From Actinomycetota bacterium (lineage in GTDB: Bacteria; Actinomycetota; Thermoleophilia; Gaiellales; Gaiellaceae): 64,000 nt of DNA. Position 1 is the stretch's first letter. The number at the start of each line of letters is the position of its first letter. Positions 1 through 16,713 of this stretch are shown in pieces. The DNA is taken from contig JBKPRJ010000055.1 in assembly GCA_046734455.1 (NCBI GenBank), positions 14,151 to 78,150 on the forward strand. The letters run 5' to 3'. A program made the translations under genes and the position numbers. The notes under the pieces were generated by a model. That model saw nothing but the letters and a program-made list of their open reading frames with translations. It was not told the origin of the DNA and did not search any database.

Positions 1-122
1 AAGCACTCCGTCTCGACGAAGATCGGCTCGGCTCCCGCCGAGCGTACGCACTCCGCGATCGCGGGACCGGGAACGCCGTCCCGCTCACCGAGCGCGATCA
101 CCTTCTTGCCGTCGAGCTTCAT
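1..122 (-). CDS. grdA: Glycine/sarcosine/betaine reductase complex selenoprotein A (GrdA). Only the N-terminal ~40 codons are present; the gene runs off the left edge.
   Basis: Reverse translation from ATG 120-122 gives [40 protein letters not shown]. This matches the conserved GrdA N-terminus ([17 protein letters not shown]....TECFVU). The window ends about 2 codons before the expected Sec codon. The start overlaps the trx stop (ATGA). It is absent from the ORF track because it is truncated. Confidence 0.8.
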
Positions 123-445
123 GCAGCGCCACCTCCTTTCAGCGTCGCGAATGCTTCCTCCACCTGCTCTCTCGAGACCTCGCCGGAGAGCCTCTCCAGC
201 TCCGCGCCGTCGCGCATCAAAATGTACGTCGGCAGGCCGAAGACGCGCAGCTCGCGGCAGACGTCGCGGTTCTGGGTCGAGTCGACCTTGACGACCTTGA
301 CGGCGCCTCCTGCCTGCTCCTCGAGGTCCTTGATCGCTGGCATCATCGCCAGGCAGGGCTGGCAGCGCGGGCCCCAGAAGTCGACGAAGACGCTTCCCTC
401 GCTCGTGAGCTCCTTGAAGGTCTCCGGTGTCGCGTCGACCGGCAT
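119..445 (-). CDS. Thioredoxin-family protein with an atypical CQPC active site
   Basis: 108-aa ORF with a thioredoxin fold. The active site is FWGPRCQPC instead of WCGPC. An SD-like GGAAGGAG lies just upstream. The stop overlaps the grdA start, the trx-grdA arrangement known from glycine reductase operons. Confidence 0.85.
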
Positions 446-490
446 CCTCGCTCCTTCCCCTCGTTCCGGCTGACTGTGAAGGAGACAGTA

Positions 491-1849
491 CTAGGGCAGT
501 CCCTCACGGGCTACGCGTGCGACGAGCTTCGCGCTGTCGCGCACGCGGCGCTCGAGCGTGTCGAAGTCGACGTGCACGATGCCGAAGCGGTAGCTGTAGC
601 CGTGCGGCCACTCGAAGTTGTCGAGGAGCGACCAGACGAAGTAGCCGCGCAGCGGCAATCCGCGCTCGACAGCGGTCAGCGCCGCTTCGAAGTGACGCTC
701 GAGGAAGCTGACCCGGTCGGGATCGCACGTCGGATCGCGGACGTCGAGAGGATAGGCGGCGCCGTTTTCGGTCACGTAGATCGGCAGGTCGCCCGTGCGC
801 GACGCGGCGAACTCGAGCACCTCCAGGAGGCCGGCGGGATAGACCTCCCACCCCATTTCGGTCTGCTCGTGCCCGTCGGGCGAGGCGAGCGCCGGGAGGA
901 AGGGCGAGCGAACCAGGTGGCGGCAGTAGTAGTTGACGCCGAGGAAATCGATCGGGCTCGCGATCAGCTCCAGGTCGCCGTCTTGCACCTCGTCCCGATG
1001 CCAGCCCGCGGCCTGCACCGCTTCCTCGGGATAGCCGCGTCCGGCAATGGGATCGAGGTACCAGCGGTTGAGCCGGTCGTGGGCGACGATCGCGGCCTCC
1101 TGGTCGAGCATGTGCGGCGTGGCCGGATGCTTCGGATGGAAGTTGAGGACGATCCCGGCCTCGACGCCCGGGGCGGCCACCCGAATCGCCGCGACGGCCA
1201 GGCCGTGCGCGACGAGCAGGTGGTGCGCCGCTGCGAACGCCGCGTCGGGCTCGGTGCGCCCGGGCGCGTGCGTGCCGAGGCCGTAGCCGAGCTCGGCGAC
1301 GACGTAGGGCTCGTTGAGCGTGGCGATGTGGCGGACACGATCCCCGAGCCGCTCGGCCACGATTCCCGCGTAGCGGGCAAAGGCTTCCGCAGTCGCGCGG
1401 ACAGGCCAGCCGCCCGCATCCTCGAGGGCCTGCGGGAGATCCCAGTGGTAAAGCGTCGGGTAGGGCTCGATCCCGTGCTCCAGGAGCTCGTCCACCAAGC
1501 GGTCGTAGAAGTCGAGCCCGGCCTGGTTCACGGCACCGGATCCGTCGGGCACGACGCGCGGCCAGGCGATCGAGAAGCGGTACCCGTCGAGACCGAGCTC
1601 CGCCATGAGGGCGACGTCCTCGCGGTAGAGGTGGTAGTGGTCGCAGGCGACGTCGCCCGTGTCGCCGTTCCAGATCCGTCCGGGCGTGTGCGCGAAGCGG
1701 TCCCAGATGCTCTCGCCGCGCCCGTCGGCCGTGACCGCGCCTTCGATCTGGTACGACGCCGTCGCTGCTCCCCAGACGAATCCGGCGGGGAAGCGGCGGC
1801 CTCCGGCCGGCTCCCCTGCCTGCTCCGGGTCGAGAACTCCGCGGCTCAT
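491..1849 (-). CDS. GH1 beta-glucosidase (BglC-like)
   Basis: The real start is ATG 1847-1849, inside track ORF 491..2770 (452 aa). GH1 motifs are present: [23 protein letters not shown] (acid/base) and YVTENG (nucleophile). ATGA overlap with the upstream permease. Confidence 0.93.
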
Positions 1850-2709
1850 CCCTTCACGGCTCCTTCGAGGATTCCGCCCACGATCTGCTTGCCGAGGAGC
1901 GCGAACACGATGAGCACCGGCACCGTCCCGACGAGCGTGCCCGCGAGGATGATGGAGCGGTCGGGGACGTAGCCCTGTCCGAGGCTGTTGAGCGCGACCT
2001 GGACGGTCGGGTTCTGGCTGGAAAGCGCGATGATCGGCCAGAAGAAGTCGTTCCAGGCCGTGAGGAACGTCAGCATCCCGAGGACCGCCATCGCCGGGCG
2101 GGCGGTCGGGAGCACGATCGAGCGGAAGATGCGGAAGGTGGAGGCGCCGTCGACGACCGCGGCCTCGATGATCTCCGTGGGCAGCGCGCGGATCAGGTAC
2201 TGCCGCATGAAGACGACGCCGAACGCGCTGACGAGGGTCGGCAGGATCACGGCCTGCAGGTGGTTCACCCAGCCGAGCTTGGCGACGAGGATGAAGAGCG
2301 GGACGACGCCGAGCTGGGCCGGAACCATCATCGTCGCGAGGAGGATGATGAGCAGCGCTGTGCTCCCGCGGAAGCGGAGCTTCGCGAACGCAAACCCGGC
2401 GAGCGTGCAGAAGAAGACGGTCCCGAGCGCGATCGCCCCGGCGACGACGAGCGAGTTCAGGAGCGCCTTGAACATGTCGACCTGGTCGAGCGCTTCGCGG
2501 ATGTTGGAGAAGAGGTTTCCGCCGGGCGTGAGCGGAGGCGGCGTCTTCGAGATGTCCGCGTTCGTGCGCGACGCAGCAACGACCGTCCAGTAGAGCGGGA
2601 AGATCGCGAGCACCGTCGTCAGCGTGAGGATCACGTAGGTGAGCGGTCCTCCGCGGCGTTCCCCCACCCGGCGCCCGAAGAACCTGCGCGGGCTCGCGAC
2701 GGCGCTCAC
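1846..2709 (-). CDS. Carbohydrate ABC transporter permease (MalG/CebG-like)
   Basis: 287-aa multi-TM protein with an EAA loop (IIEAAVVDGASTFRIF). GTG start in a GTGA overlap with the upstream permease. Confidence 0.92.
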   Translation of the reverse strand: MSAVASPRRFFGRRVGERRGGPLTYVILTLTTVLAIFPLYWTVVAASRTNADISKTPPPLTPGGNLFSNIREALDQVDMFKALLNSLVVAGAIALGTVFFCTLAGFAFAKLRFRGSTALLIILLATMMVPAQLGVVPLFILVAKLGWVNHLQAVILPTLVSAFGVVFMRQYLIRALPTEIIEAAVVDGASTFRIFRSIVLPTARPAMAVLGMLTFLTAWNDFFWPIIALSSQNPTVQVALNSLGQGYVPDRSIILAGTLVGTVPVLIVFALLGKQIVGGILEGAVKG

Positions 2710-3713
2710 GCCGGCCTCCCCTTCCGGCCGAGCGTGAACGCGCTCCTGCCGCGCGCCGCGAGCAGCGCATTGATCCCGACCGCCACGATGATGATCAGGA
2801 ACATCGTCCAGGCCGTCGCGGCGGCACGGCCGAGCTGGAAGTTGAACCAGCCCTGCTCGTAGAGAAGGAGGCCCAGGGTCTGGTACTGGTGGTCGGCGCC
2901 GCCCGAGTGGCCGCCGGCTCCGCCGAAGAGGAGAGGCTCGCCGAAGAGCTGGGTCGCTCCGATCGTCGAGATGATGATCGTGAAGACGATCGTCGGCCAG
3001 ATGCCCGGGACGGTGACGTGGCGGAACTGGTGCCAGCGAGTCGCGCCGTCAACCTCCGCCGCTTCATAGAGGTCTTTCGGGACCGCCTGCATCGCCGCGA
3101 GGTAGATGAGCGCGTTGTAGCCCGTCCAGCGCCACGTGACGATCGTCGAGATCGCGATCTGCGACGACCAGCGTCCGCTCTCCCAGTCGACGTTGTCGAA
3201 GCCGAGGAGGCCGAGGAACGAGTTGATGAGGCCGAAGTCGCGGCCGAACAGCATGGCGAAGACGATGGTGGCGGCCGCAACCGAGGTCGCATACGGCATG
3301 AGGAGCGAGACGCGCCAGAAGGTCGATCCCCGCACCTTGCAGTCGAGGGCGTAGGCGAGCCCGAGCGCCATCAACAGCTGCGGGACCGTCGAGATGACGC
3401 CGATCGTGAACGTGTTCGTGAGGGCGTTCCAGAAGCGGTCGTCGTGGAAGAGCCGCGTGTAGTTGTCGAGCCCGACCCACTCCATCTCGTCGGTGTTCTG
3501 GAGCGTGACGCTGTGGAGCGAGACCCACGCGGTGTAGACGAGAGGGAAGAGCCCGAAGGCAATGAAGAGGAGGAAGAAGGGCGAGACGTACGCGTACGGA
3601 GAGAAGCGCTGGTCGAACCTCGTCAGCCGCATGCGCCACGGCCGCGGTGCCGCCGGGTCAGCGCGGAGGGCGACTGCCGCGGCGAGCTCGGTATCGGTGC
3701 TGGTCTTCGCCAC
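2706..3713 (-). CDS. Carbohydrate ABC transporter permease (MalF/CebF-like)
   Basis: 335-aa ORF with TM helices and an EAA loop (YEAAEVDGATRWHQF). The start is GTG 3713, or alternatively ATG 3632. Confidence 0.9.
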   Translation of the reverse strand: MAKTSTDTELAAAVALRADPAAPRPWRMRLTRFDQRFSPYAYVSPFFLLFIAFGLFPLVYTAWVSLHSVTLQNTDEMEWVGLDNYTRLFHDDRFWNALTNTFTIGVISTVPQLLMALGLAYALDCKVRGSTFWRVSLLMPYATSVAAATIVFAMLFGRDFGLINSFLGLLGFDNVDWESGRWSSQIAISTIVTWRWTGYNALIYLAAMQAVPKDLYEAAEVDGATRWHQFRHVTVPGIWPTIVFTIIISTIGATQLFGEPLLFGGAGGHSGGADHQYQTLGLLLYEQGWFNFQLGRAAATAWTMFLIIIVAVGINALLAARGRSAFTLGRKGRPA

Positions 3714-3793
3714 GTAGCTGGATGGGCGTCCGGCGGCTCCCGACGATACAGCCGGGAGCCGCCGGTGAGGAGGTCAGGATCGCCCGCGGTGCG

Positions 3794-5125
3794 TCATCCG
3801 ATGGCGCTCGCGATCTCGTCCATGGTCTTCTGCCAGGCGGTGTCGGGGTCCTCGCCCTGCTGGTCCACTCGCAGGAGACCGTTCGAGATCGTGTCCTTGA
3901 TGACGCCGTCTTTCGGCCCGAGGGTCGCGACGGTGAGATTGTCGGCGGACTCCTTGAAGAGCTCGCCCACGGGCGCGTTCGAGAAGTACTCGTCCGTGGC
4001 GGCCGCGACGGCATCGTCCTCGGCCGCGGTCGAGCTCGACGGGAAGTGCTGCGCCTGCGTCCACATCTTCACCTGCTGCTCGGGGGCGGTCAGCCACTGG
4101 ATCAGGTCGTACGCCTCCTGCTGGTGCTCGCTGGCGGTTGGGATGGCGAGATACGAGCCGCCCCAGTTTCCGCCCCCGCCCGGGATGGGAGCGACGTCCC
4201 ACTTGCCCGAGCCGGTGTCGCCGGCCTGGCCCTTGATGTAGCCGATCATCCAGGCGGGGCAGGCGATCGTCGCGAAGCGTCCGTTGGCAAACGCCTGGTT
4301 CCACGGCTGGTCGAACTGCTTGAGCTTTGCGGTCAGCCCGGCCTGGATCGCCGAGACCGCGAGGTCCCACGCGTCCTTGACAGCCGGGTTCGTGTCGTAG
4401 ATCGGGTTGCCTTCCGTGTCGTAGTACTGGGTCTCCGACTGGCCGATGATGGCGTTGTAGTAGCCGGAGGCGCTGTCCATGAACGCGGAGTTGTCGGGCG
4501 CGTTCGCCGCGTACTGCTTGCCGACCTCGATGAAGTCGGGCCACGTCTGCCACATCGACGCGAGCTCGTCGCGGTCGGTCGGCAGCCCGGCCTTCTTGAA
4601 GAGATCCGTCCGGTAGCAGATCGCGAGGGGGCCGGTATCGGTGCCGAGCCCGACGACCGCGCCGTCGGGGCTCGTGGCCGCCTCCCACTTCCACGGGAAG
4701 AAGGTGCTCTGGAGATCGTCCGCGCCGAGATCGCGCAAGTCGACGAACTTGTCCGCCTGCGTCTGCGTCACCTCGGCGATGCGCGCGACTTCGATGCCCT
4801 GGATGTCGGAGAGGCCGGCGCCGCCGGCGAGATGAGTCTGCAAAGCCTGGTAGTAGTCCTGCTCGAACTCGATGCTCGTCTCCTTGATGGTGACGTTCGG
4901 GTGGAGCGTCATGTACTCGTCGTACAGCCCGGCTTCCTTGTAGCCGAACGTGCCGAAGAGCCCGACGGTCAGCGTCACCTTCTCGCTGCTCGCCGACGCA
5001 GTCTCCGACCCACCGGACACCGCGTCGTCGCCTCCGCAGCCGAGGGCCGCCAGCACCAGGCCGGCAGCGACCGCGAGCAACGAAACGACGCGCGCCCACG
5101 TCGATGCCTGCAACGGTTTCAGCAT
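3794..5125 (-). CDS. Sugar ABC transporter substrate-binding lipoprotein (CebE-like)
   Basis: Real start is ATG 5123-5125 with SD GAGGAGG upstream. The lipoprotein signal is MLKPLQASTWARVVSLLAVAAGLVLAALGCGGDD. The rest resembles a family-1 solute-binding protein. Confidence 0.9.
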   Translation of the reverse strand: MLKPLQASTWARVVSLLAVAAGLVLAALGCGGDDAVSGGSETASASSEKVTLTVGLFGTFGYKEAGLYDEYMTLHPNVTIKETSIEFEQDYYQALQTHLAGGAGLSDIQGIEVARIAEVTQTQADKFVDLRDLGADDLQSTFFPWKWEAATSPDGAVVGLGTDTGPLAICYRTDLFKKAGLPTDRDELASMWQTWPDFIEVGKQYAANAPDNSAFMDSASGYYNAIIGQSETQYYDTEGNPIYDTNPAVKDAWDLAVSAIQAGLTAKLKQFDQPWNQAFANGRFATIACPAWMIGYIKGQAGDTGSGKWDVAPIPGGGGNWGGSYLAIPTASEHQQEAYDLIQWLTAPEQQVKMWTQAQHFPSSSTAAEDDAVAAATDEYFSNAPVGELFKESADNLTVATLGPKDGVIKDTISNGLLRVDQQGEDPDTAWQKTMDEIASAIG

Positions 5126-5190
5126 CTGAACCTCCTCGAAGAATCCGCGCGGGAGCCCGTTGGCTCGACCGCCCGAAGCGCTCGATAAGA

Positions 5191-5219
5191 TGTAAGCGCT
5201 TTCATTGGAAGCGCTTACA
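5191..5219. promoter_or_regulatory. Pair of LacI-type palindromic operators (CebR-box-like)
   Basis: TGTAAGCGCTTTCA (5191-5204) and TGGAAGCGCTTACA (5206-5219) each centre on GCGC. Together they form an 11-bp perfect inverted repeat, TGTAAGCGCTT/AAGCGCTTACA. They lie between the divergent binding-protein gene and the LacI gene. Confidence 0.6.
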
Positions 5220-6296
5220 TTACACTGCAAGCGACGACGTGTAAAGGAGGCGGAGATCAAGAAGGCGGAGCAGCATTCCCACGGGGGCCGGTCCCTCCCG
5301 ACGATCGCCGAGGTGGCACGGCTCGCGACCGTCTCGACGGCGACGGTGTCGCGTGTGGTCAACGGGTCCCCCAACGTGCGGCCCACGACGCGGGACGCCG
5401 TCCTCGATGCGATCGACCAGCTCGGCTACACGCCCAATCGCGCCGCCCGCACGCTGGTCACTCGGCGGACGGACACGATCGCCCTCGTCGTCTCCGAGTC
5501 CGAGACGCGCGTCTTCTCCGACCCCTTCTTCCCGAGCATCGTCCGCGGCGTCTCGGCCGCGCTCGCGCACACCGAGCTCCAGCTCCTGCTCCTCATGGCC
5601 CGCGACGACAGGGAGCATGCGAAGGTCGAGCGCTACGTGCGCCAGGGGCACGTCGACGGCGTCATTCTCATGTCGCTGCACGGGGACGATCCCCTGCCGA
5701 AAACGCTCCCCCGGCTCGGCGTGCCGACGGTGCTCGTGGGCAGGCCGAAGAGCGACGAACGCCTCCCCTGGGTGGATGCGGACAACCGCGGCGGCGCCCG
5801 GGCCGCGACGGGACGACTGCTCTCCGGCGGGAGGAAGAGCGTCGCGACGATCACGGGGCCTCTCGACATGACGGTGAGCGTCGATCGCTTCGACGGCTAT
5901 CGCGACGCCCTGCGGGCAGCGGGACGGCGCTACCGGAAGAGCCTCGTCGCCCACGGCGACTTCGGCAAGGAATCCGGCGCGCGCGGCATCCGGGAGCTCG
6001 CCCAGCGCGTGCCCGACATGGACGCCGTGTTCGTCGCCAACGACCCGATGGCGATCGGCGCACTCGAGGCGCTGCGCTCCCTCGGCCGGCGCGTCCCGGA
6101 CGACGTCGCGGTCATCGGCTTCGACGACATCGCCGAGGCCGCCCTCACCGACCCTCCGCTGACCACCGTCAGCCAGCCCCTCGAGCAGATGACGAACGCG
6201 CTCGCGGAGCTCCTCCTCAGGCGCATCAGCCGCCTCGGTGATGCGGAGGAGTCGGTCGTCGTGCCGACCCAGCTCGTCGCACGCGCATCGGCCTAG
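5205..6296 (+). CDS. LacI-family transcriptional repressor (CebR-like)
   Basis: The HTH is PTIAEVARLATVSTATVSRVVNG, followed by a periplasmic-binding-fold effector domain. The start is uncertain. The track start is TTG 5205, inside the operator. An SD (AAGGAGG, 5244-5250) is followed in frame only by ATC 5256. Confidence 0.88.
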   Translation: MEALTLHCKRRRVKEAEIKKAEQHSHGGRSLPTIAEVARLATVSTATVSRVVNGSPNVRPTTRDAVLDAIDQLGYTPNRAARTLVTRRTDTIALVVSESETRVFSDPFFPSIVRGVSAALAHTELQLLLLMARDDREHAKVERYVRQGHVDGVILMSLHGDDPLPKTLPRLGVPTVLVGRPKSDERLPWVDADNRGGARAATGRLLSGGRKSVATITGPLDMTVSVDRFDGYRDALRAAGRRYRKSLVAHGDFGKESGARGIRELAQRVPDMDAVFVANDPMAIGALEALRSLGRRVPDDVAVIGFDDIAEAALTDPPLTTVSQPLEQMTNALAELLLRRISRLGDAEESVVVPTQLVARASA

Positions 6297-6304
6297 CGGC
6301 TGCG

Positions 6305-7612
6305 CTAGCGAGACGGTTCGAGCAGGACCGACATGCCGTCGGCCAGCTCCGTCATGCGGCCGAGAAACAGCGATCCCTTGGCGACCAGCATCGTCGAGTC
6401 GATCTCGCCGGCGCGGAGCGCCTCGAGACCGTGTGGTAGCCAAGGCACGGCCGAGGCGACGTGGCCCTGCGTCGGCGAGAAGCCGGGCAGGCCGCGCTCG
6501 CGCTCGAAGCCGTCCAGCTGCTCACGCGGGAGCTCTCCTCGCTTGACCGCCAGTGCGGCGATGAGCTTGTAGTTGCGCTGCGGCACGTTGCCCGCCCCCG
6601 CCGGTTCGGTGATCTCCGGGTCGTGGAGCTCGGTCGCGTACCGGTCGACGTCGAGGATCCCGCGGCCGAGGCGCCCGAGCGGTTCGACGACGAGGTCTTC
6701 GAGAACCGCCTGCTGCGCCGAGCCCGAGCCGACGCGGTGGCGTCCGACGGCGTCGAGGCGGATCGTCGCGGCGCCATCCTCTACGGGGCCCACGAGAATC
6801 GCGAGGCCGGCGAGGACGTCCTCGAGGACAGGCACGTCGTTGCGCAGCGCGCCGGCGAACTTCATGCCGAGCTTGGCGAGCGAGCCTCCTGCGACGACCG
6901 CCACGTGCTCGTACACGCCTGAACTGACGAGCGAGGCTGCGACGACGAGCGCGTGGATCGGGCCCGCGCAGAAGGCCTTGACATCGGAGCCGGACGCGTT
7001 GACGCAGCCGGCTTGCTCGGCGATCGCCTTGCCGAGATTGCCGCCGCCGCGCTGGTAGCGGTCGCCCACCGCCTCCTCGCCGCAGCCGATCGCGTACGCA
7101 AGTTCCTCGGCGGGGAAGCCGGTGCGGGTCAGGAGGTGCTCGAGCGCGACGGCGCCGGTCGCCTTGCAGGCGAGGTTCTCGAGCAGGACGCTGGCCGAGA
7201 GGCTCTCGTCGAGCTCGTGGGCACGGTCCATGACACCCGCTCGGCTGCCGTTGCGGTAGAGAGGAAGCGCGCCGTCGGCGGCCTCGCGCCCATCCAGGTG
7301 GAGGAGCTGGAACTGGTCCGCGGCGGCCATGCGCGAGTAGAGCTCGTCCTGGTCGACGAAGACGCCGAACGGGCCCTCGGCTTTCGGCTCGGCGGGATGG
7401 CGCCACCACGGGCGCTCCGTCTCCCAGAGCGCGTCCGGCGAGAGGTTGCCGATGAAGACCTGGTGCGGCGGGTAGCCGAGCGCCTCGTCGAACGTACGGA
7501 GGGCCAGCTTGATCTCATCGGCGGCGTGCTCCCGGGCCGGCTTCGATCCGTGGCGGACGAGGTCGGGCGCGTGGGCGAGAACGAGGCTGCAGCCGTGGAC
7601 GGCGGCGCTCAC
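6305..7612 (-). CDS. Glycine/sarcosine/betaine reductase component C beta-subunit-like protein (GrdC-like, thiolase-type fold)
   Basis: Preferred start is GTG 7610-7612 with GGAAGGG 8 nt upstream; the track start 7654 is an alternative. The N-terminus (LVLAHAPDLVRHGSKP...LRTFDEALGYPPHQVFIGNL...RPWW) resembles GrdC N-termini as I remember them. The central block DVKAFCAGPIHALVVAASLVSSGVYEHVAVVAGGS is thiolase-like. The family call is from memory, not searched. Confidence 0.7.
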   Translation of the reverse strand: MSAAVHGCSLVLAHAPDLVRHGSKPAREHAADEIKLALRTFDEALGYPPHQVFIGNLSPDALWETERPWWRHPAEPKAEGPFGVFVDQDELYSRMAAADQFQLLHLDGREAADGALPLYRNGSRAGVMDRAHELDESLSASVLLENLACKATGAVALEHLLTRTGFPAEELAYAIGCGEEAVGDRYQRGGGNLGKAIAEQAGCVNASGSDVKAFCAGPIHALVVAASLVSSGVYEHVAVVAGGSLAKLGMKFAGALRNDVPVLEDVLAGLAILVGPVEDGAATIRLDAVGRHRVGSGSAQQAVLEDLVVEPLGRLGRGILDVDRYATELHDPEITEPAGAGNVPQRNYKLIAALAVKRGELPREQLDGFERERGLPGFSPTQGHVASAVPWLPHGLEALRAGEIDSTMLVAKGSLFLGRMTELADGMSVLLEPSR

Positions 7613-7718: not shown

Positions 7719-8990
7719 TCACTCGTCGACCTCCCAGACGGTGGTCGCCTCGACGTCTGTCTCGAGCATGTCGAGTGCGCGCTCCACGATCCGCCGCCGC
7801 TCCTCCTCGTCGAGCCCGAACGGATGCGTGATCGCCGGACCGCGCACGATGCGGTTCGCTCCGATCATCGTGGCAACGGTCGGAAGCGACGTCACGTAGA
7901 CCGCCGGTATTCCCGCCCGCTCGATCTCCTTCGCCAGCACTGCCCCGCAGCGCGTGCCCGTCCCTCAGGTGCCGGAGAGGAGGACGGCTTGTACGCCCGC
8001 GTCGCGAAGCTCGCCCGCGATCTCCTGCCCGAATTTCGTCGCGACGACGACGGGCGTGCCGTTCCCCGTCGTCGTGTAGAGCGACTCGTGGACGCGGCCC
8101 ACGCGCCCAGCGCGCTCGAGGCCGCGAACCGTGTCGAGCGGGACGAGCCGGTTCGGATCCTCGTTCGCGAGGGTGACGTCGAAGCCGCCGTGCACCGACT
8201 CGTACCGGCCCGACGCGAGTGTCTCGGCGCCGCCGAGGTCGTAGCGGAACCAGCCCTGCGCACGCACGGACTGAAGGTGGTCCGGATTTCCCTGCGGCAC
8301 ACACCCGGCCTCGGTCACGAGCGCCACGAGCGCGGACGACAGGTCGGCAACCGGAGGCGGCGGCTCGACGCGGTCCATGTCTCCGCCGACCTCGGTTCGC
8401 GTCTCGCCGGCGAGCTTCGCAAGGAGGAGCCCGACCGCGCGCTCGGCGCCGGTCTTCTCGGCGAAATAGTTGCGCCGGAACCCGCGCACGAGGTAGCCCT
8501 CCTCGTCGGCCGAGCCGAGCTCGCGGCCCGACGCGAGCGCGGAGGTAAGAGCCCCGAGCCGCGGGAGAGCGTCGCGCATCCCGGCAACGTTCACGGCCGT
8601 CGGGACGACGTAGGCGGCACCTGCCTCCCCCACACCCGGGTTCTCCTCGTGCATGGCCGCGACGGCCGGAATTCCCCGCTCGGCGGCGGCCGCGGCGAGC
8701 CGCGCACATGCGTAGCCGTATCGGCCGGAGCCGAACGCCGGCCCGGCGACGAGGACGTCCGGTTCGTGCTCGGCCAGCATCTCGAGCAGCGTCGCCAAAG
8801 CCTCCTCCTCGTGCTCGGCGAAGTAGTCGTCCCCGCAGGCGAGCGTCGCGACGATCTCGACGCCTTGGAGCTCGGCGGCGAGCCCGCGCCCGGGCCCGAC
8901 CGCTCCCTCGAGCCGCGTCGGCGGCGTCTCGGCCTGCTCCTCCCCGCCCAGGCCGGCGAAGAACTGGTTCAGGTAGTGGACGGCCTTCAC
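7719..8990 (-). CDS. Glycine/sarcosine/betaine/D-proline reductase family selenoprotein B (GrdB/GrdF/GrdH-like), with in-frame UGA (Sec) at 7965-7967
   Basis: Track ORFs 7965..9278 and 7719..7940 share one frame, and TGA 7965-7967 is the only interruption. The start is GTG 8988-8990 (VKAVHYLNQFFAGLGGEE) in a GTGA overlap with the upstream gene. Read-through gives LLSGT-U-GTGTRCGAVLAKEIERAGIPAVYVTS, the family Sec block. The product is 423 codons with Sec at about residue 342. Confidence 0.85.
7937..7967 (-). other. Sec UGA codon plus candidate SECIS hairpin
   Basis: UGA lies at 7965-7967. A hairpin, GCGCUGC-GGG-GCAGUGC (7 bp including one G-U, G-rich apical loop), spans 7937-7953 and starts 11 nt after the UGA. 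Confidence 0.55.
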
Positions 8991-10162
8991 TCGGTCCTCG
9001 CACTCAGGGCCAGCTGCCCCATCTGGTTGGCGGCGCCGAGGTAGTTGCGGACGGGAATCGGGCCAGCCGCGGCCGCCTGAGCCCCGTCCAGGAGCCGATC
9101 GCCGCCGAGCACGCGCTCCGGCGTCCACGCGTCGACGAGCTCCTCGACGTTCCCGGTCGAGACGATCGAATCGGCCTCCCGTACCCAGTCGGTGAGGATC
9201 GGCTTCGTCGACTGAGGATCGGTCTCCTCGGCCAGGACGACAGTTGTGCGGATGCCGGCCTGCTCGCACGCGCGGCATGTGAGCATGACGTCGGTGTGCG
9301 AGTTGCCGCCCGCGTCCGTCGTGATGACGACGCCGTCCGCGCCGAGCTCGCCGGCGACAGCGGCCCCTCGCTCCGCCGCGTGCTGCTTGTCGGCCGCACT
9401 CTGTTCGTAGCCACGCATCAGGACGACGCCGGCGAAGCGCAGTGACTTCCCATGCTCGCGGTAGAGCGTGCGGATGAGCTCGTTCCGCTGGAAGAACCAG
9501 GTCGGGTTCCGCATCGCGGCCCAGTGGTACTCGCCGCAGGTGACCGCGCCGTCGAGCACCTCGGCGGGGCCGAAGGCGCGCGGCAAGCCGGCATCGCCCG
9601 CCGGCACGCCGTAGACGTACTGGATGTACAGCGGCCCCAGATCGGAGAGCTGGATGAGTGCCGCGACCGCCGGGAGGCCCGCATCGCCCGCGCCGAGCGC
9701 GAAGCGCTCCACCTCATCGTGCTCGGCGTCGAGCGTCCCGCGCGCGATCTCCTCGGCAACGGAGAGAGTGGTGCGGCGCGCCTCCGCATCGATCGCCACA
9801 TGCCCTCCCCCTCCAGGCGAGAAGGTGAGGATGACGGCGGTCATGTCGGAAAAGGGAGTCAGCGCGGCGCCGGGACCGCCGAGGTCGACGATCGACTCCT
9901 GCTCGTGGAGAGGCCTCTCCTCGCCCGGGAAGTCGAGGCACGAAAGGACGACGACGCCGTCGAGGCGGTTCGTCCGCCCCTCCCCGGCCCGCCCGTCGGT
10001 GGGGAACGCGGGGCGGCCGTCGGGCCGGATCCGCGGCTCCACGGCGTCGAGCACGTGCGTCACGCGCACGGGGGAGCCACGCGGCACGACCTCGACGTCC
10101 GCACCCTCGACGACAGGCTCCCGAAGGAGGTCGGGCGAGAACGATGCGAGCTCCCACGGCAT
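8987..10162 (-). CDS. Glycine/sarcosine/betaine reductase component B alpha/beta proprotein-like (GrdE/GrdG/GrdI-like)
   Basis: 391-aa ORF immediately upstream of, and translationally coupled to, the selenoprotein B gene. It has the size and layout of GrdE-type partners. Cys209 (AVTCGEYHW) is a possible self-processing site. Confidence 0.75.
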   Translation of the reverse strand: MPWELASFSPDLLREPVVEGADVEVVPRGSPVRVTHVLDAVEPRIRPDGRPAFPTDGRAGEGRTNRLDGVVVLSCLDFPGEERPLHEQESIVDLGGPGAALTPFSDMTAVILTFSPGGGGHVAIDAEARRTTLSVAEEIARGTLDAEHDEVERFALGAGDAGLPAVAALIQLSDLGPLYIQYVYGVPAGDAGLPRAFGPAEVLDGAVTCGEYHWAAMRNPTWFFQRNELIRTLYREHGKSLRFAGVVLMRGYEQSAADKQHAAERGAAVAGELGADGVVITTDAGGNSHTDVMLTCRACEQAGIRTTVVLAEETDPQSTKPILTDWVREADSIVSTGNVEELVDAWTPERVLGGDRLLDGAQAAAAGPIPVRNYLGAANQMGQLALSARTE

Positions 10163-12612: not shown

Positions 12613-13527
12613 GTGGAAGGCGGCGGCACGCAGATCGACGAAGTCCTCGAGCTCGTTCCCGAGCTGCGAGACGCGCACGCCGTCTCCGAGCTCGCGGGCG
12701 GGCTGACGAACACGAACTACAAGGTCGAGGCCGAGGGCGGCGCCTACGTCGTCCGCGTCTCCGCGAAGGACGCGGGGCTCCTCGCCATTGACCGGGAGAA
12801 CGAGTACTTGAACACGGTCGCGGCCGCCGAGGCGGGCGTCGGGGCCGGCGTGGTCGCCTACATGCCCGACCGCGGCGTTCTCGTGCTCGAGTTCATCGAA
12901 GGGCAGACGCAGACGGCGGAGGATCTGCGCCGCGGCAACCGGCTCGACTGGGTCGCAGCCGCCTGCCGCAAGCTGCACGGCGCACGGCGCTTCCGCGACG
13001 ACTTCAACATGTTCCGGATTCAGCAGCGCTATCTGGGCCTCGTCCAGGAGCGCGGCTTCCGACTTCCCGACGGCTATCTCGACTACGAGCCGCAGGTGCG
13101 CCGGATCGAGAGGGCCATGGCCGTCAGGGACGAGGGCACGGTTCCCTGCAACAACGACCTCCTCGCCGAGAACTTCATCGACGTGGGCGACGGCTTCAGG
13201 CTCATCGACTACGAGTACTCCGGCAACAACGACGCGTGCTTCGAGCTCGGCAACGTCTGGAGCGAGTCGAACCTCGCGCTCGAGCAGCTCGACGAGATCG
13301 TCGCGCGCTACTACGGCCGGCAGCTCGCCAACAAGGTCGCCCGCGCGCGCCTCTGGGGGCTCATGTCGAAGTACGGGTGGACGCTCTGGGCGTCCATCCA
13401 GGACAGCGTGTCCGACATCGACTTCGACTTCTGGGGCTGGGGAATGGAGAAGTACGAGCGCGCCGTCGCCGAATTCGAGGGTCCCGACTTCGAGCGCCTG
13501 CTCGAGGACGTGGAGCGCGAGGATTGA
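12613..13527 (+). CDS. Choline/ethanolamine kinase-family phosphotransferase
   Basis: 304 aa. It carries a Brenner-type motif (PCNNDLLAENFI) and a choline-kinase-type motif (LIDYEYSGNND). It diverges 20 nt from the DMG-oxidase-type gene. Confidence 0.8.
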   Translation: MEGGGTQIDEVLELVPELRDAHAVSELAGGLTNTNYKVEAEGGAYVVRVSAKDAGLLAIDRENEYLNTVAAAEAGVGAGVVAYMPDRGVLVLEFIEGQTQTAEDLRRGNRLDWVAAACRKLHGARRFRDDFNMFRIQQRYLGLVQERGFRLPDGYLDYEPQVRRIERAMAVRDEGTVPCNNDLLAENFIDVGDGFRLIDYEYSGNNDACFELGNVWSESNLALEQLDEIVARYYGRQLANKVARARLWGLMSKYGWTLWASIQDSVSDIDFDFWGWGMEKYERAVAEFEGPDFERLLEDVERED

Positions 13528-13565
13528 CACGGCGCTTCCGCCGCAGCGGTGCGTAGACTCGGCGC

Positions 13566-14405
13566 GTGGCCGCGTTCCGCGCACAGGGCCTCGCGAAGCG
13601 GTACGGGAACGTGACCGCCCTCGGCGGGGTCGACCTCGAGGTCGCGGAGGGAGAGCTCGTGGGCCTGCTCGGGCCGAACGGAGCGGGGAAGTCCACGCTC
13701 GTGAAGATCGCGTGCGGGCTCGTGCGGGCGAGCGCGGGCACCGCGGACGTGGCCGGTGCACCGGCCGGCTCGCCGGCGGCGCGCGCGGCTCTCGGCTATC
13801 TCGCCGAGCTCTTCCGCTTTCCCGGCTGGTACAACGCCGACGAGCTCCTCGCCCTGCACCAGCGCCTTGCCGGCTCCGAGGGAGGCGAGGCCGAGCGGGC
13901 CGAGCTCCTCGACCTTGTCGGCCTGACCGAGGCGCGGTCGCGCAAGGTCGAGGACATGTCGAAGGGGATGCAGCAGCGGCTCGGCATCGCCCAGGCGCTC
14001 GTGGGCCGGCCGCGGCTCCTCTTCCTCGACGAGCCGACGAGCGCGCTCGACCCGGTCGGCCGGCGCACCGTCCGCCGCCTCCTCGAGGAGCTGCGGCGAC
14101 GTGGAGTCTCGGTGCTCCTCAACTCACATCTCCTGAGCGAGGTCGAGCTCGTCTGCGACCGCGTCGTCATCCTCTCCAAGGGCCTCGTCGTGGCCGCGGG
14201 CCGCACCGAGGAGCTGGCCAGGCCGCGCGGGGTCGAGATCGACACGGACGGCGGGACGCGGCTCTTCGACTCGGCGCGCCGTGAGGATGCACCGCGCATC
14301 GTCGCCGAGCTGGTCGCGGCCGGAGAGAAGGTCTACGGGGTCCGCGTCCTCGAGACGACTCTGGAGGAGATCTATCTCGAGGCGGTCGAGGGAGAGACGA
14401 GTTGA
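13566..14405 (+). CDS. ABC transporter ATP-binding protein
   Basis: Walker A (GPNGAGKST), ABC signature (MSKGMQQRL) and Walker B (LLFLDEPTSALD) are all present. Confidence 0.92.
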   Translation: MAAFRAQGLAKRYGNVTALGGVDLEVAEGELVGLLGPNGAGKSTLVKIACGLVRASAGTADVAGAPAGSPAARAALGYLAELFRFPGWYNADELLALHQRLAGSEGGEAERAELLDLVGLTEARSRKVEDMSKGMQQRLGIAQALVGRPRLLFLDEPTSALDPVGRRTVRRLLEELRRRGVSVLLNSHLLSEVELVCDRVVILSKGLVVAAGRTEELARPRGVEIDTDGGTRLFDSARREDAPRIVAELVAAGEKVYGVRVLETTLEEIYLEAVEGETS

Positions 14406-15277
14406 GAGGCGCGGTCATCGTCGCGGGCTACGCGGTTCAGGAAAGCGTCCGCCGCCGCGTCTTCCCGGTCGTCCTCGTCCTCACCCTCGCCTTCCTCGGG
14501 CTCTACAGCTTCGGGGTCTACAAGGCGTACCAGTCGATCGACCCGGGCTCCACGGAGTCCGTCGGCAACGGCGACGAGCTGGCGATCGTCGACACGCAGG
14601 TGCTCTTCAGCGCGACACTCTTCGGCCTCTCGATCTTCGCGGTGCTCTTCCTCGGAACGGTGCTCGCGATCTTCCTCACGCACGCGGTCGTCCGGGGAGA
14701 TGCAGAACGCGGCCTCCTGCAGCCGCTCGTCGTGAGGCCGGTCGGGCGCGCCGCGCTCCTCGCCGGGCGGTACGGCGCGGCGGCGCTCGTCTGCGCTGTC
14801 TACGTCGTTCTCGTCTACGCGATCTCGCTGCTCGTCATACACTGGGTGACCGGCTGGTGGCCCGACCAGATCGTCGTCCCCGCGCTCGAGCTCGCCGCGG
14901 CCGTCGCGGTCATCGTCGCCATCTCGCTCTTCGGCTCCATCTTCCTCTCGGCGATTGCGAACGGCATCGCAATCTTCATGGTCTTCGGCGCGGGCCTCGT
15001 CGCCGGCCTGCTCGGCCAGATCGGGGAGGCGCTGAACTCCGACAGCCTCAACACGATCGCCAACGTCTCCTCGTGGGCGCTCCCCTTCGAGGCGCTCTAC
15101 CAGGACGCGCTCAACGGGATCACCTCGGACACGGCCGGATTCACGAAGGTCGCGCTCTCCCTCGGGCCTTTCGGAGGCGCGCAGCCGGCGGGCGCCTGGC
15201 TCTGGCCCTACCTCGTGGGATACCTCGCCGCTCTCGGCGCCGTCGGGCTCTGGGCCTTCAACCGCAAAGACCTGTAG
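14402..15277 (+). CDS. ABC-2-type transporter permease
   Basis: 291-aa polytopic membrane protein. TTG start in a TTGA overlap with the ATPase stop. Confidence 0.8.
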   Translation: MRGAVIVAGYAVQESVRRRVFPVVLVLTLAFLGLYSFGVYKAYQSIDPGSTESVGNGDELAIVDTQVLFSATLFGLSIFAVLFLGTVLAIFLTHAVVRGDAERGLLQPLVVRPVGRAALLAGRYGAAALVCAVYVVLVYAISLLVIHWVTGWWPDQIVVPALELAAAVAVIVAISLFGSIFLSAIANGIAIFMVFGAGLVAGLLGQIGEALNSDSLNTIANVSSWALPFEALYQDALNGITSDTAGFTKVALSLGPFGGAQPAGAWLWPYLVGYLAALGAVGLWAFNRKDL

Positions 15278-16597: not shown

Positions 16598-16639
16598 GCC
16601 CGGAGGTCTACCAGAAGCGCGGCGGCGCTAACCCTTCAG

Positions 16640-16713
16640 TCGGGACGGCCGGATTCGAACCGGCGGCCTCCTGCTCCCAAAGCAGGCGCGCTACCAGGCT
16701 GCGCCACGTCCCG
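16640..16713 (-). tRNA. tRNA-Pro (anticodon UGG)
   Basis: The 74-nt cloverleaf was folded by hand. Acceptor stem CGGGACG/CGTCCCG, D stem GCGC/GCGC, anticodon stem CCTGC/GCAGG with loop TTTGGGA, T arm GCCGG-TTCGAAT-CCGGC, discriminator A. No encoded CCA. Confidence 0.95.

Follow-up and report, generated by a model that had tools for sequence, protein, structure and literature searches.

The 64-kb stretch of Gaiellaceae (Actinomycetota) DNA analysed here (contig JBKPRJ010000055.1; hereafter, the window) encodes on its minus strand a 423-residue selenoprotein-B-type subunit, the gene of which contains an in-frame TGA at positions 7967-7965. Sequence comparison indicates that this TGA very probably encodes selenocysteine (Sec), at residue 342. 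This was also the conclusion of the original prediction, an earlier reading of the window from its letters, which placed the product among the GrdB/GrdF/GrdH/PrdB-family subunits. The assignment is supported by a match of the joined protein to the family profile TIGR01918, by the presence of TGA at the aligned codon in all 80 related loci, by a covarying hairpin downstream of the codon and by homologs that carry Cys in its place.

An in-frame UGA within a selenoprotein-B-type gene

On the minus strand, positions 8990..7719 form a single frame of 423 codons that is terminated by TGA 7721-7719. The sole internal stop of this frame is TGA 7967-7965 at codon 342, where the joined translation reads QAVLLSGT, followed by the UGA and then by GTGTRCGAVLAKEIERAGIPAVYVTSLPTVA. 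In the list of open reading frames (ORFs), the gene is represented by two pieces, 7965..9278(-) and 7719..7940(-); an open stretch of 24 nucleotides (nt), 7964-7941, separates the TGA from the GTG at 7940. The start codon, GTG 8990, is preceded by a GAGGA positioned 5 nt upstream and overlaps the stop of the upstream gene (TGA 8989-8987) as GTGA. Translation bears out every coordinate given in the original prediction, which had described one gene of 423 codons, starting at GTG 8990 within the GTGA overlap and hidden by the in-frame UGA. The window has a G+C content of ~70%, and TGA is the commonest ordinary stop within it, ending 17 of the 33 long ORFs; a reassignment of TGA as in genetic code 4/25 was rejected for this reason. 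The features that concern the recoding are as follows:

7719..8990, minus strand: selenoprotein-B-type gene, 423 codons plus TGA stop, GTG start; TIGR01918 438 bits over the full profile; a single tblastn high-scoring segment pair spans residues 1-423 in relatives
7965..7967, minus strand: UGA codon 342, very probably read as Sec; TGA in 80/80 loci, Cys in the homologs P0148, P0178, P0231, P0132 and P0206
7937..7953, minus strand: putative Sec insertion sequence (SECIS) hairpin, 7-bp stem with GGG loop; SECIS_4-aligned span 7927-7964

Against NCBIfam TIGR01918 (glycine/betaine/sarcosine/D-proline family reductase selenoprotein B), the joined protein scores 437.9 bits (cut-off 65.45), with residues 2-420 aligned to positions 1-431 of the 431-position profile. 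Because this match reaches the end of the profile, the 81 residues that follow the UGA belong to the family domain; the match to Pfam GRDB (PF07355) ends at residue 341. The two sequence blocks that had been put forward as family hallmarks, an N-terminal VHYxNQFF..GGEE and a (K/R)EIE(R/K)xGIP helix, are both present, here as VHYLNQFF..GGEE and KEIERAGIP. The redox motif of the selenoprotein B family is U-x-x-C-x-x-C (PMC13188914), and the originally proposed U-x-x-C-x-x-CG block holds for the Sec position and the second Cys, but not for the middle Cys, which is replaced by Gly to give the active-site block S-G-T-U-G-T-G-T-R-C-G. The same arrangement, U-G-T-G/S-T-R-C with the second Cys alone kept, is found in the window and in all 43 Actinomycetota loci described below. 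We note that U-x-x-C-x-x-C is not universal in the TIGR01918 family, as variants with G, S, D or A occur in several phyla. A sequence search of the PDB returned no homolog with a solved structure.

Conservation of the UGA and of the frame beyond it

The set of relatives comprises 80 related loci (L001-L080), obtained by scanning a collection in which each GTDB species is represented by one genome. Gaiellaceae, Thermoleophilia or other Actinomycetota metagenome-assembled genomes (MAGs) account for 43 of them, at 55-94% identity, and the remainder come from Bacillota, Chloroflexota, Desulfobacterota, Spirochaetota and others. The aligned codon is TGA in 80/80 loci and the frame continues to ~420-440 residues in all; homologs that end naturally at the UGA, which had been raised at the outset as a possible objection, are not seen among them. 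Within the Actinomycetota loci, the 50 codons after the UGA display a coding-like variability by codon position (0.115/0.059/0.260) and are under at least as much constraint as the 50 that precede it. Conservation is lacking for the internal GTG at 7940: the codon is ACG in 51 of 79 distinct sequences and ACG or ACA in most homologs, which means that independent translation of the C-terminal part is not conserved as an option.

Cys occupies the Sec position in the database homologs listed above. Some public homologs (P0124, P0181) display Trp at this position, because the gene caller applied genetic code 4/25 to the TGA. Thr (P0137) and Ser (P0130) are also observed at or near the Sec position.

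A covarying hairpin downstream of the UGA

Bacterial SECIS elements are stem-loops located shortly 3' of the UGA, with a small apical loop that contains G (PMC1088965). The hairpin GCGCUGC-GGG-GCAGUGC, at 7953-7937(-), starts 11 nt downstream of the UGA and belongs to the minimum free energy fold of the region. The seven pairs of the stem were examined by pair counting in an 81-sequence alignment (A1), with partners slid by 1-3 columns and 500 shuffles as controls. The stem is paired in 95.3% of cells, compared with 24-70% when the partners are slid, and its covariation score is matched by 0 of 500 shuffles. Thus, the fold and the covariation together bear out the 7-bp hairpin with a G-rich loop that had been pointed out from the window alone.

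Compensatory changes are observed at three pairs of the stem. Pair 21-31 is UA in 51 and CG in 28 distinct sequences and is broken in none; its 5' base, the third and synonymous position of an Arg codon (CGU/CGC), changes in step with the base that opens codon +9 (ACG, or GUG/GCG). Pair 18-34 is GC in 45, UA in 22, AU in 1 and CG in 1, whereas pair 22-30 is UA in 77 and AU in 2. The AU form of pair 22-30 is found in two Dehalococcoidia loci (L078, L080), where a change from Cys to Ser (UGC to AGC) is matched by a synonymous change within an Ala codon (GCA to GCU). Since the compensatory changes arise in several unrelated clades, they are not explicable by protein constraint. Third positions in the Actinomycetota loci vary freely in codons +1 to +3 (0.42-0.58) and are frozen or covarying in codons +4 to +9, which correspond to the hairpin.

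In a permissive Rfam search, RF01990 (SECIS_4, the grdB SECIS) aligns to the window over positions 1-38 of 38, in register, from the base after the UGA. The same model is found at gathering score in L045, L062 and L073, where it likewise starts at the base after the TGA. The window hairpin is similar, but not identical, to SECIS_4: the 6-bp inner stem, the 3-nt GGN loop, the distance and the register are shared, whereas the Actinomycetota version is G+C-rich and divergent in sequence. As judged from this alignment, the window hairpin and the known grdB SECIS are homologous, the former being G+C-rich and divergent.

Alternative readings of the UGA

Several observations weigh against Sec insertion at codon 342, or against the chemistry that would follow from it. 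Folded as a single sequence, the 66-nt stretch is no more stable than its shuffles (z = 0.34), and the case for the hairpin therefore rests on the comparative evidence, namely covariation. RNAalifold recovers the inner 4 pairs only. Rfam at gathering score gives no match at the hairpin site, and the SECIS prediction that had been recommended for this region, although full-length and in register, stays below that threshold (13.5 bits versus 38, E = 2.8), as do L002 and L004. Neither selA, selB, selD nor tRNA-Sec is present in the 64-kb window, nor within +-10 kb of the operon in the 43 Actinomycetota loci. At the level of the operon, grdD, the gene of the acetyl-thioester-forming subunit, is found neither in the window (tblastn, even at E <= 1) nor within +-10 kb in the 43 Actinomycetota loci, the search being confined to these regions, and trxB was found neither in the window nor in the flanks, so that the genes present explain the chemistry leading to acetyl phosphate only in part. 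No sel genes emerged when about 35 further ORFs of the window were annotated, and searches of all loci with E. coli SelA and SelB (tblastn) gave matches only in the non-actinobacterial L058, L065 and L069. We infer the Sec-decoding machinery of the lineage from the two Sec genes and the SECIS that are conserved across 43 species-level genomes.

If the UGA were a genuine stop, a 341-residue protein would be made, perhaps together with a separate 73-residue peptide initiated at GTG 7940, that is, a split enzyme free of Sec. ORF callers yield exactly two such pieces, here and in public databases, and the lack of Sec machinery in the window would fit this arrangement. However, homologs preserve the downstream frame and sequence even though most of them lack the internal start, and the 24-nt interval from the TGA to the GTG likewise shows coding conservation. 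Moreover, a genuine stop would leave a conserved, compensating hairpin without a role and an enzyme without the catalytic residue of its family, and we regard termination as very improbable. The identity of the inserted amino acid is not readable from the sequence alone, and the Cys homologs indicate that the fold tolerates Cys; both points could favor a Sec-independent route, such as decoding of the UGA by a near-cognate tRNA (Trp or Cys), that gives a full-length protein without selenium. To this we would assign a slim chance, because the downstream element shares its structure and register with the grdB SECIS of Firmicutes that genuinely use Sec, the operon of the relatives also includes a grdA with its own conserved UGA in CFVUTAAG, and 80 species have retained TGA in preference to TGC/TGT.

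A recent nonsense mutation would also leave a gene intact but for one in-frame stop, which raises the question of a pseudogene or of a sequencing or assembly error that replaced TGC/TGT. The recurrence of the same TGA in 80 independent assemblies effectively refutes this, and purifying selection downstream of the UGA as well as intact operon partners point the same way; the probability of this explanation appears negligible. Decoding of codon 342 as Sec is thus the reading that we adopt for the 423-residue subunit.

The operon and its neighborhood

The genes that accompany the selenoprotein-B-type gene in the window are listed here from upstream to downstream:

12592-10184, minus strand: DAO+GCV_T dehydrogenase (dimethylglycine/sarcosine-dehydrogenase-like; flavin adenine dinucleotide (FAD) oxidoreductase fused to an aminomethyltransferase domain)
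8987..10162, minus strand: GrdE/GrdG/GrdI-like partner of component B; PF09338 226 bits, GrdG 145 bits, FarE 71 bits
6305..7654, minus strand: grdC, component C beta subunit; NF040746 537 bits versus a cut-off of 450, 43% identity to Thermobrachium celere GrdC
460-6314: LacI-type regulator (plus strand), sugar-binding protein, two ABC permeases and beta-glucosidase, a 5.85-kb block
119..445, minus strand: thioredoxin with CQPC motif; PF00085 66 bits; directly after grdC in relatives (synteny in L001-L053)
1..122, minus strand: 5' part of grdA (selenoprotein A), first 40 codons, from translation; complete CFVUTAAG genes in L001-L024

The partner gene is translationally coupled to the grdB-like gene. 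At the other end of the cluster, the ATG of grdA overlaps the thioredoxin stop (ATGA), and the edge of the window cuts grdA 3 codons before its own Sec codon; the complete grdA genes with CFVUTAAG in L001-L024 occupy the syntenic place. Positions 1-122 of the window are the start of grdA, which gives the operon a second selenoprotein gene. L001-L004 lack the sugar block and have grdC, trx and grdA side by side, and the 5.85-kb block is an insertion that splits the grd operon in the window genome only. We note that the active site of the thioredoxin reads WGPRCQPC (C-Q-P-C, not the usual C-G-P-C) and that the protein scores below all NCBIfam thioredoxin equivalog cut-offs.

The Actinomycetota loci, as well as L052 and L073, share the gene order E-B-C-trx-A, whereas the Firmicutes loci exhibit the classical grdX-trxB-trxA-grdE-grdA-grdB-grdC-grdD order. 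None of grdD, trxB and grdX lies within reach in the E-B-C-trx-A loci. Glycine riboswitch aptamers precede the classical Firmicutes operons (L045 6298-6394, L062 6079-6166), but the window, L002 and L004 yielded no such aptamer. A Pfam census of the neighborhoods of the loci revealed no consistently linked transporter or catabolic gene; the hints that the neighborhood offers are weak and inconsistent, comprising a choline-kinase-like gene, an amino-acid permease, GMC oxidoreductases and DAO enzymes. The DAO+GCV_T gene, which lies directly upstream of the grdE-like gene, was considered as a clue to the substrate, but is a weak one, since it is present in the window and L002 but missing from this place in L003 and L004, and it does not count as a conserved part of the operon.

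A tRNA-Pro(UGG) gene upstream (16639-16713, minus strand) and a tRNA-Gly(UCC) gene downstream of the cluster are syntenic across many Gaiellales loci (L003-L023), and the cluster therefore resides in a stable chromosomal neighborhood, rather than on a mobile element. In 19 Actinomycetota loci, the cluster has as its neighbor, just downstream of grdA, a Caa3_CtaG gene for cytochrome c oxidase assembly (for example, L004 16093-16863). This adjacency suggests that the Grd-carrying Actinomycetota respire oxygen, which is unusual for Grd hosts.

A subfamily with an altered active site and partner

Comparison with GrdB, GrdF, GrdH and PrdB, as recommended in the original prediction, establishes membership of the TIGR01918 family, but does not single out any one of the four. 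The protein scores 406.8 bits against the GrdB equivalog TIGR01917 (cut-off 602.2), 437 bits against GrdF NF040794 (800), 379 bits against GrdH NF040795 (775) and 79.6 bits against PrdB TIGR04483 (300), to which it aligns over residues 216-383. Sequence motifs for GrdB and GrdF have been published by Nobu et al. (PMC9751293) and pick out 22 Firmicutes-type loci. The window protein deviates from the GrdB motif at GPAFGSGRYG, VHGGFDVT and RLVPLD, and it does not match the GrdF motif either.

The partner subunit is likewise altered. In the alignment, the column of the canonical Cys within the GrdE processing site SGN|CVSAC is E or Y in the window clade, and a neighboring Cys of the window partner (VTCGEY) is not conserved, alternating between C, A, S and N among relatives. 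On this evidence, the partner is very unlikely to be a self-cleaving pyruvoyl proprotein. Across the 80 loci, which span several phyla, the middle Cys and the processing cysteines are lost in concert: both losses are seen in 42 loci and neither in 27, with one exception. GrdH/GrdI of L067 uncouples the two losses, as GrdH keeps the Cys and GrdI lacks the processing site. The L067 GrdH (13372-14685), which scores 808 bits versus the cut-off of 775, served as the positive control for betaine reductase. It belongs to a complete second module in this locus (L067 11620-16375; also observed in L075) that consists of grdA2, grdI without the processing Cys, grdH and a BCCT glycine-betaine transporter.

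By these features, the gene belongs to an uncharacterised subfamily that is defined by U-x-x-G, a non-pyruvoyl partner and a grdD-less operon and that is widespread in soil Actinomycetota. Homologs from Chloroflexota, Desulfobacterota, Spirochaetota and Methylomirabilota share these features.

Comparison with known Grd-type systems

The characterised systems closest to that of the window are similar, but distinct. Glycine reductase component B of Firmicutes consists of the selenoprotein GrdB and the proprotein GrdE; with GrdB of Thermobrachium celere (L045), the window protein shares TIGR01918/PF07355, 48.6% identity, the Sec position and the distance and register of the SECIS. Shared with the same system are VHYLNQFF..GGEE, the KEIERAGIP helix and the grdE-like, grdC, trx and grdA genes. 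In contrast, the window has U-x-x-G in place of U-x-x-C, a partner without the SGN|CVSAC cysteines and the order E-B-C-trx-A, with neither grdD, trxB nor grdX nearby and no glycine riboswitch.

The betaine reductase GrdH/GrdI has the same family and Sec position, and its partner, too, is not a pyruvoyl proprotein. However, the window protein is only 40.5% identical to GrdH, less than to GrdB, and the window partner is 29-31% identical to GrdE and GrdI (31% to GrdI). Furthermore, GrdH keeps U-G-T-C-T-R-C, and the BCCT transporter that adjoins grdH in L067 has no counterpart near the window gene. The fluoroacetate reductase of Cloacibacillus comprises a FarB without the conserved CxxC and a FarE without the two processing cysteines (PMC10838667), and thereby offers a parallel to the window, where the middle Cys and the pyruvoyl site are lost as well. 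This system differs in phylum and context; moreover, the window partner reaches 70.6 bits versus the FarE cut-off of 675, and the window protein keeps the second Cys. PrdB is homologous within its C-terminal half, including the Sec region, but is ~240 aa long and lacks the N-terminal domain, and no prd genes lie near the window gene.

Because the partner lacks the pyruvoyl-forming cysteines, as do GrdI and FarE, the substrate is probably neither glycine nor sarcosine. Loss of the middle Cys likewise speaks against glycine. The carbonyl required for a Schiff base is apparently missing, and a substrate that needs no imine activation is therefore likelier than glycine or sarcosine. Betaine, or another quaternary or tertiary amine, may be a candidate, as may a compound with another good leaving group. 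We tentatively suggest, at somewhat below even odds, that the Gaiellales-type operon represents a functionally distinct class of Grd-type selenoenzyme with a new substrate, which could be betaine, another N-methylated glycine or another substituted acetate.

Proposed mechanism

Bacterial Sec insertion and the chemistry of the Grd enzymes have been reviewed (PMC13188914). By this route, the SECIS stem-loop in the mRNA, 11 nt 3' of the UGA, would recruit SelB-GTP-Sec-tRNA(Sec) to the ribosome, and continued translation would produce a 423-residue subunit bearing Sec342. Component B is the substrate-specific part of a glycine-reductase-type (Grd) complex, and the product would supply its Sec-bearing half. 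By analogy with characterised Grd enzymes, Sec342 would attack the alpha-carbon of a substituted acetate (X-CH2-COO-), and the carboxymethyl group would be handed to the Sec of GrdA. Component C would then make an acetyl thioester and, subsequently, acetyl phosphate, while thioredoxin would re-reduce GrdA.

Representation in public databases

The best 120 homologs in a large protein collection are all ~339-342 aa in length (apart from one of 321 and one of 387), cover ~81% of the query and end at the UGA. They include NCBI entries named 'selenoprotein B [Gaiellaceae bacterium]'. When the 81-residue C-terminal piece is used as the query, its counterparts are found stored mostly as orphan ORFs of 70-100 residues. 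The expectation that annotation would report a truncated gene is thus borne out by the best 120 public proteins, with the limit that the Gaiellaceae homologs already carry the name selenoprotein B. We consider the recoding event to be real, but ordinary, as it follows a known SECIS design and close orthologs are already named selenoprotein B. Sec-aware gene calling would nevertheless repair two genes per genome, the grdB-like gene and grdA.

Implications

Grd-type selenoenzymes are markers of anaerobic amino-acid fermenters. The hosts of the operon described here are soil Actinomycetota that appear to be aerobes, as the Caa3_CtaG genes at their loci suggest. A literature search returned nothing on Grd or selenoproteins in Gaiellales or Thermoleophilia. 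That 43 species-level Actinomycetota MAGs conserve the operon implies that an abundant soil lineage uses selenium and reduces substituted acetates. If the operon does encode a distinct Grd class, it would represent a widespread, overlooked selenium-dependent metabolism outside the classical Stickland fermenters.

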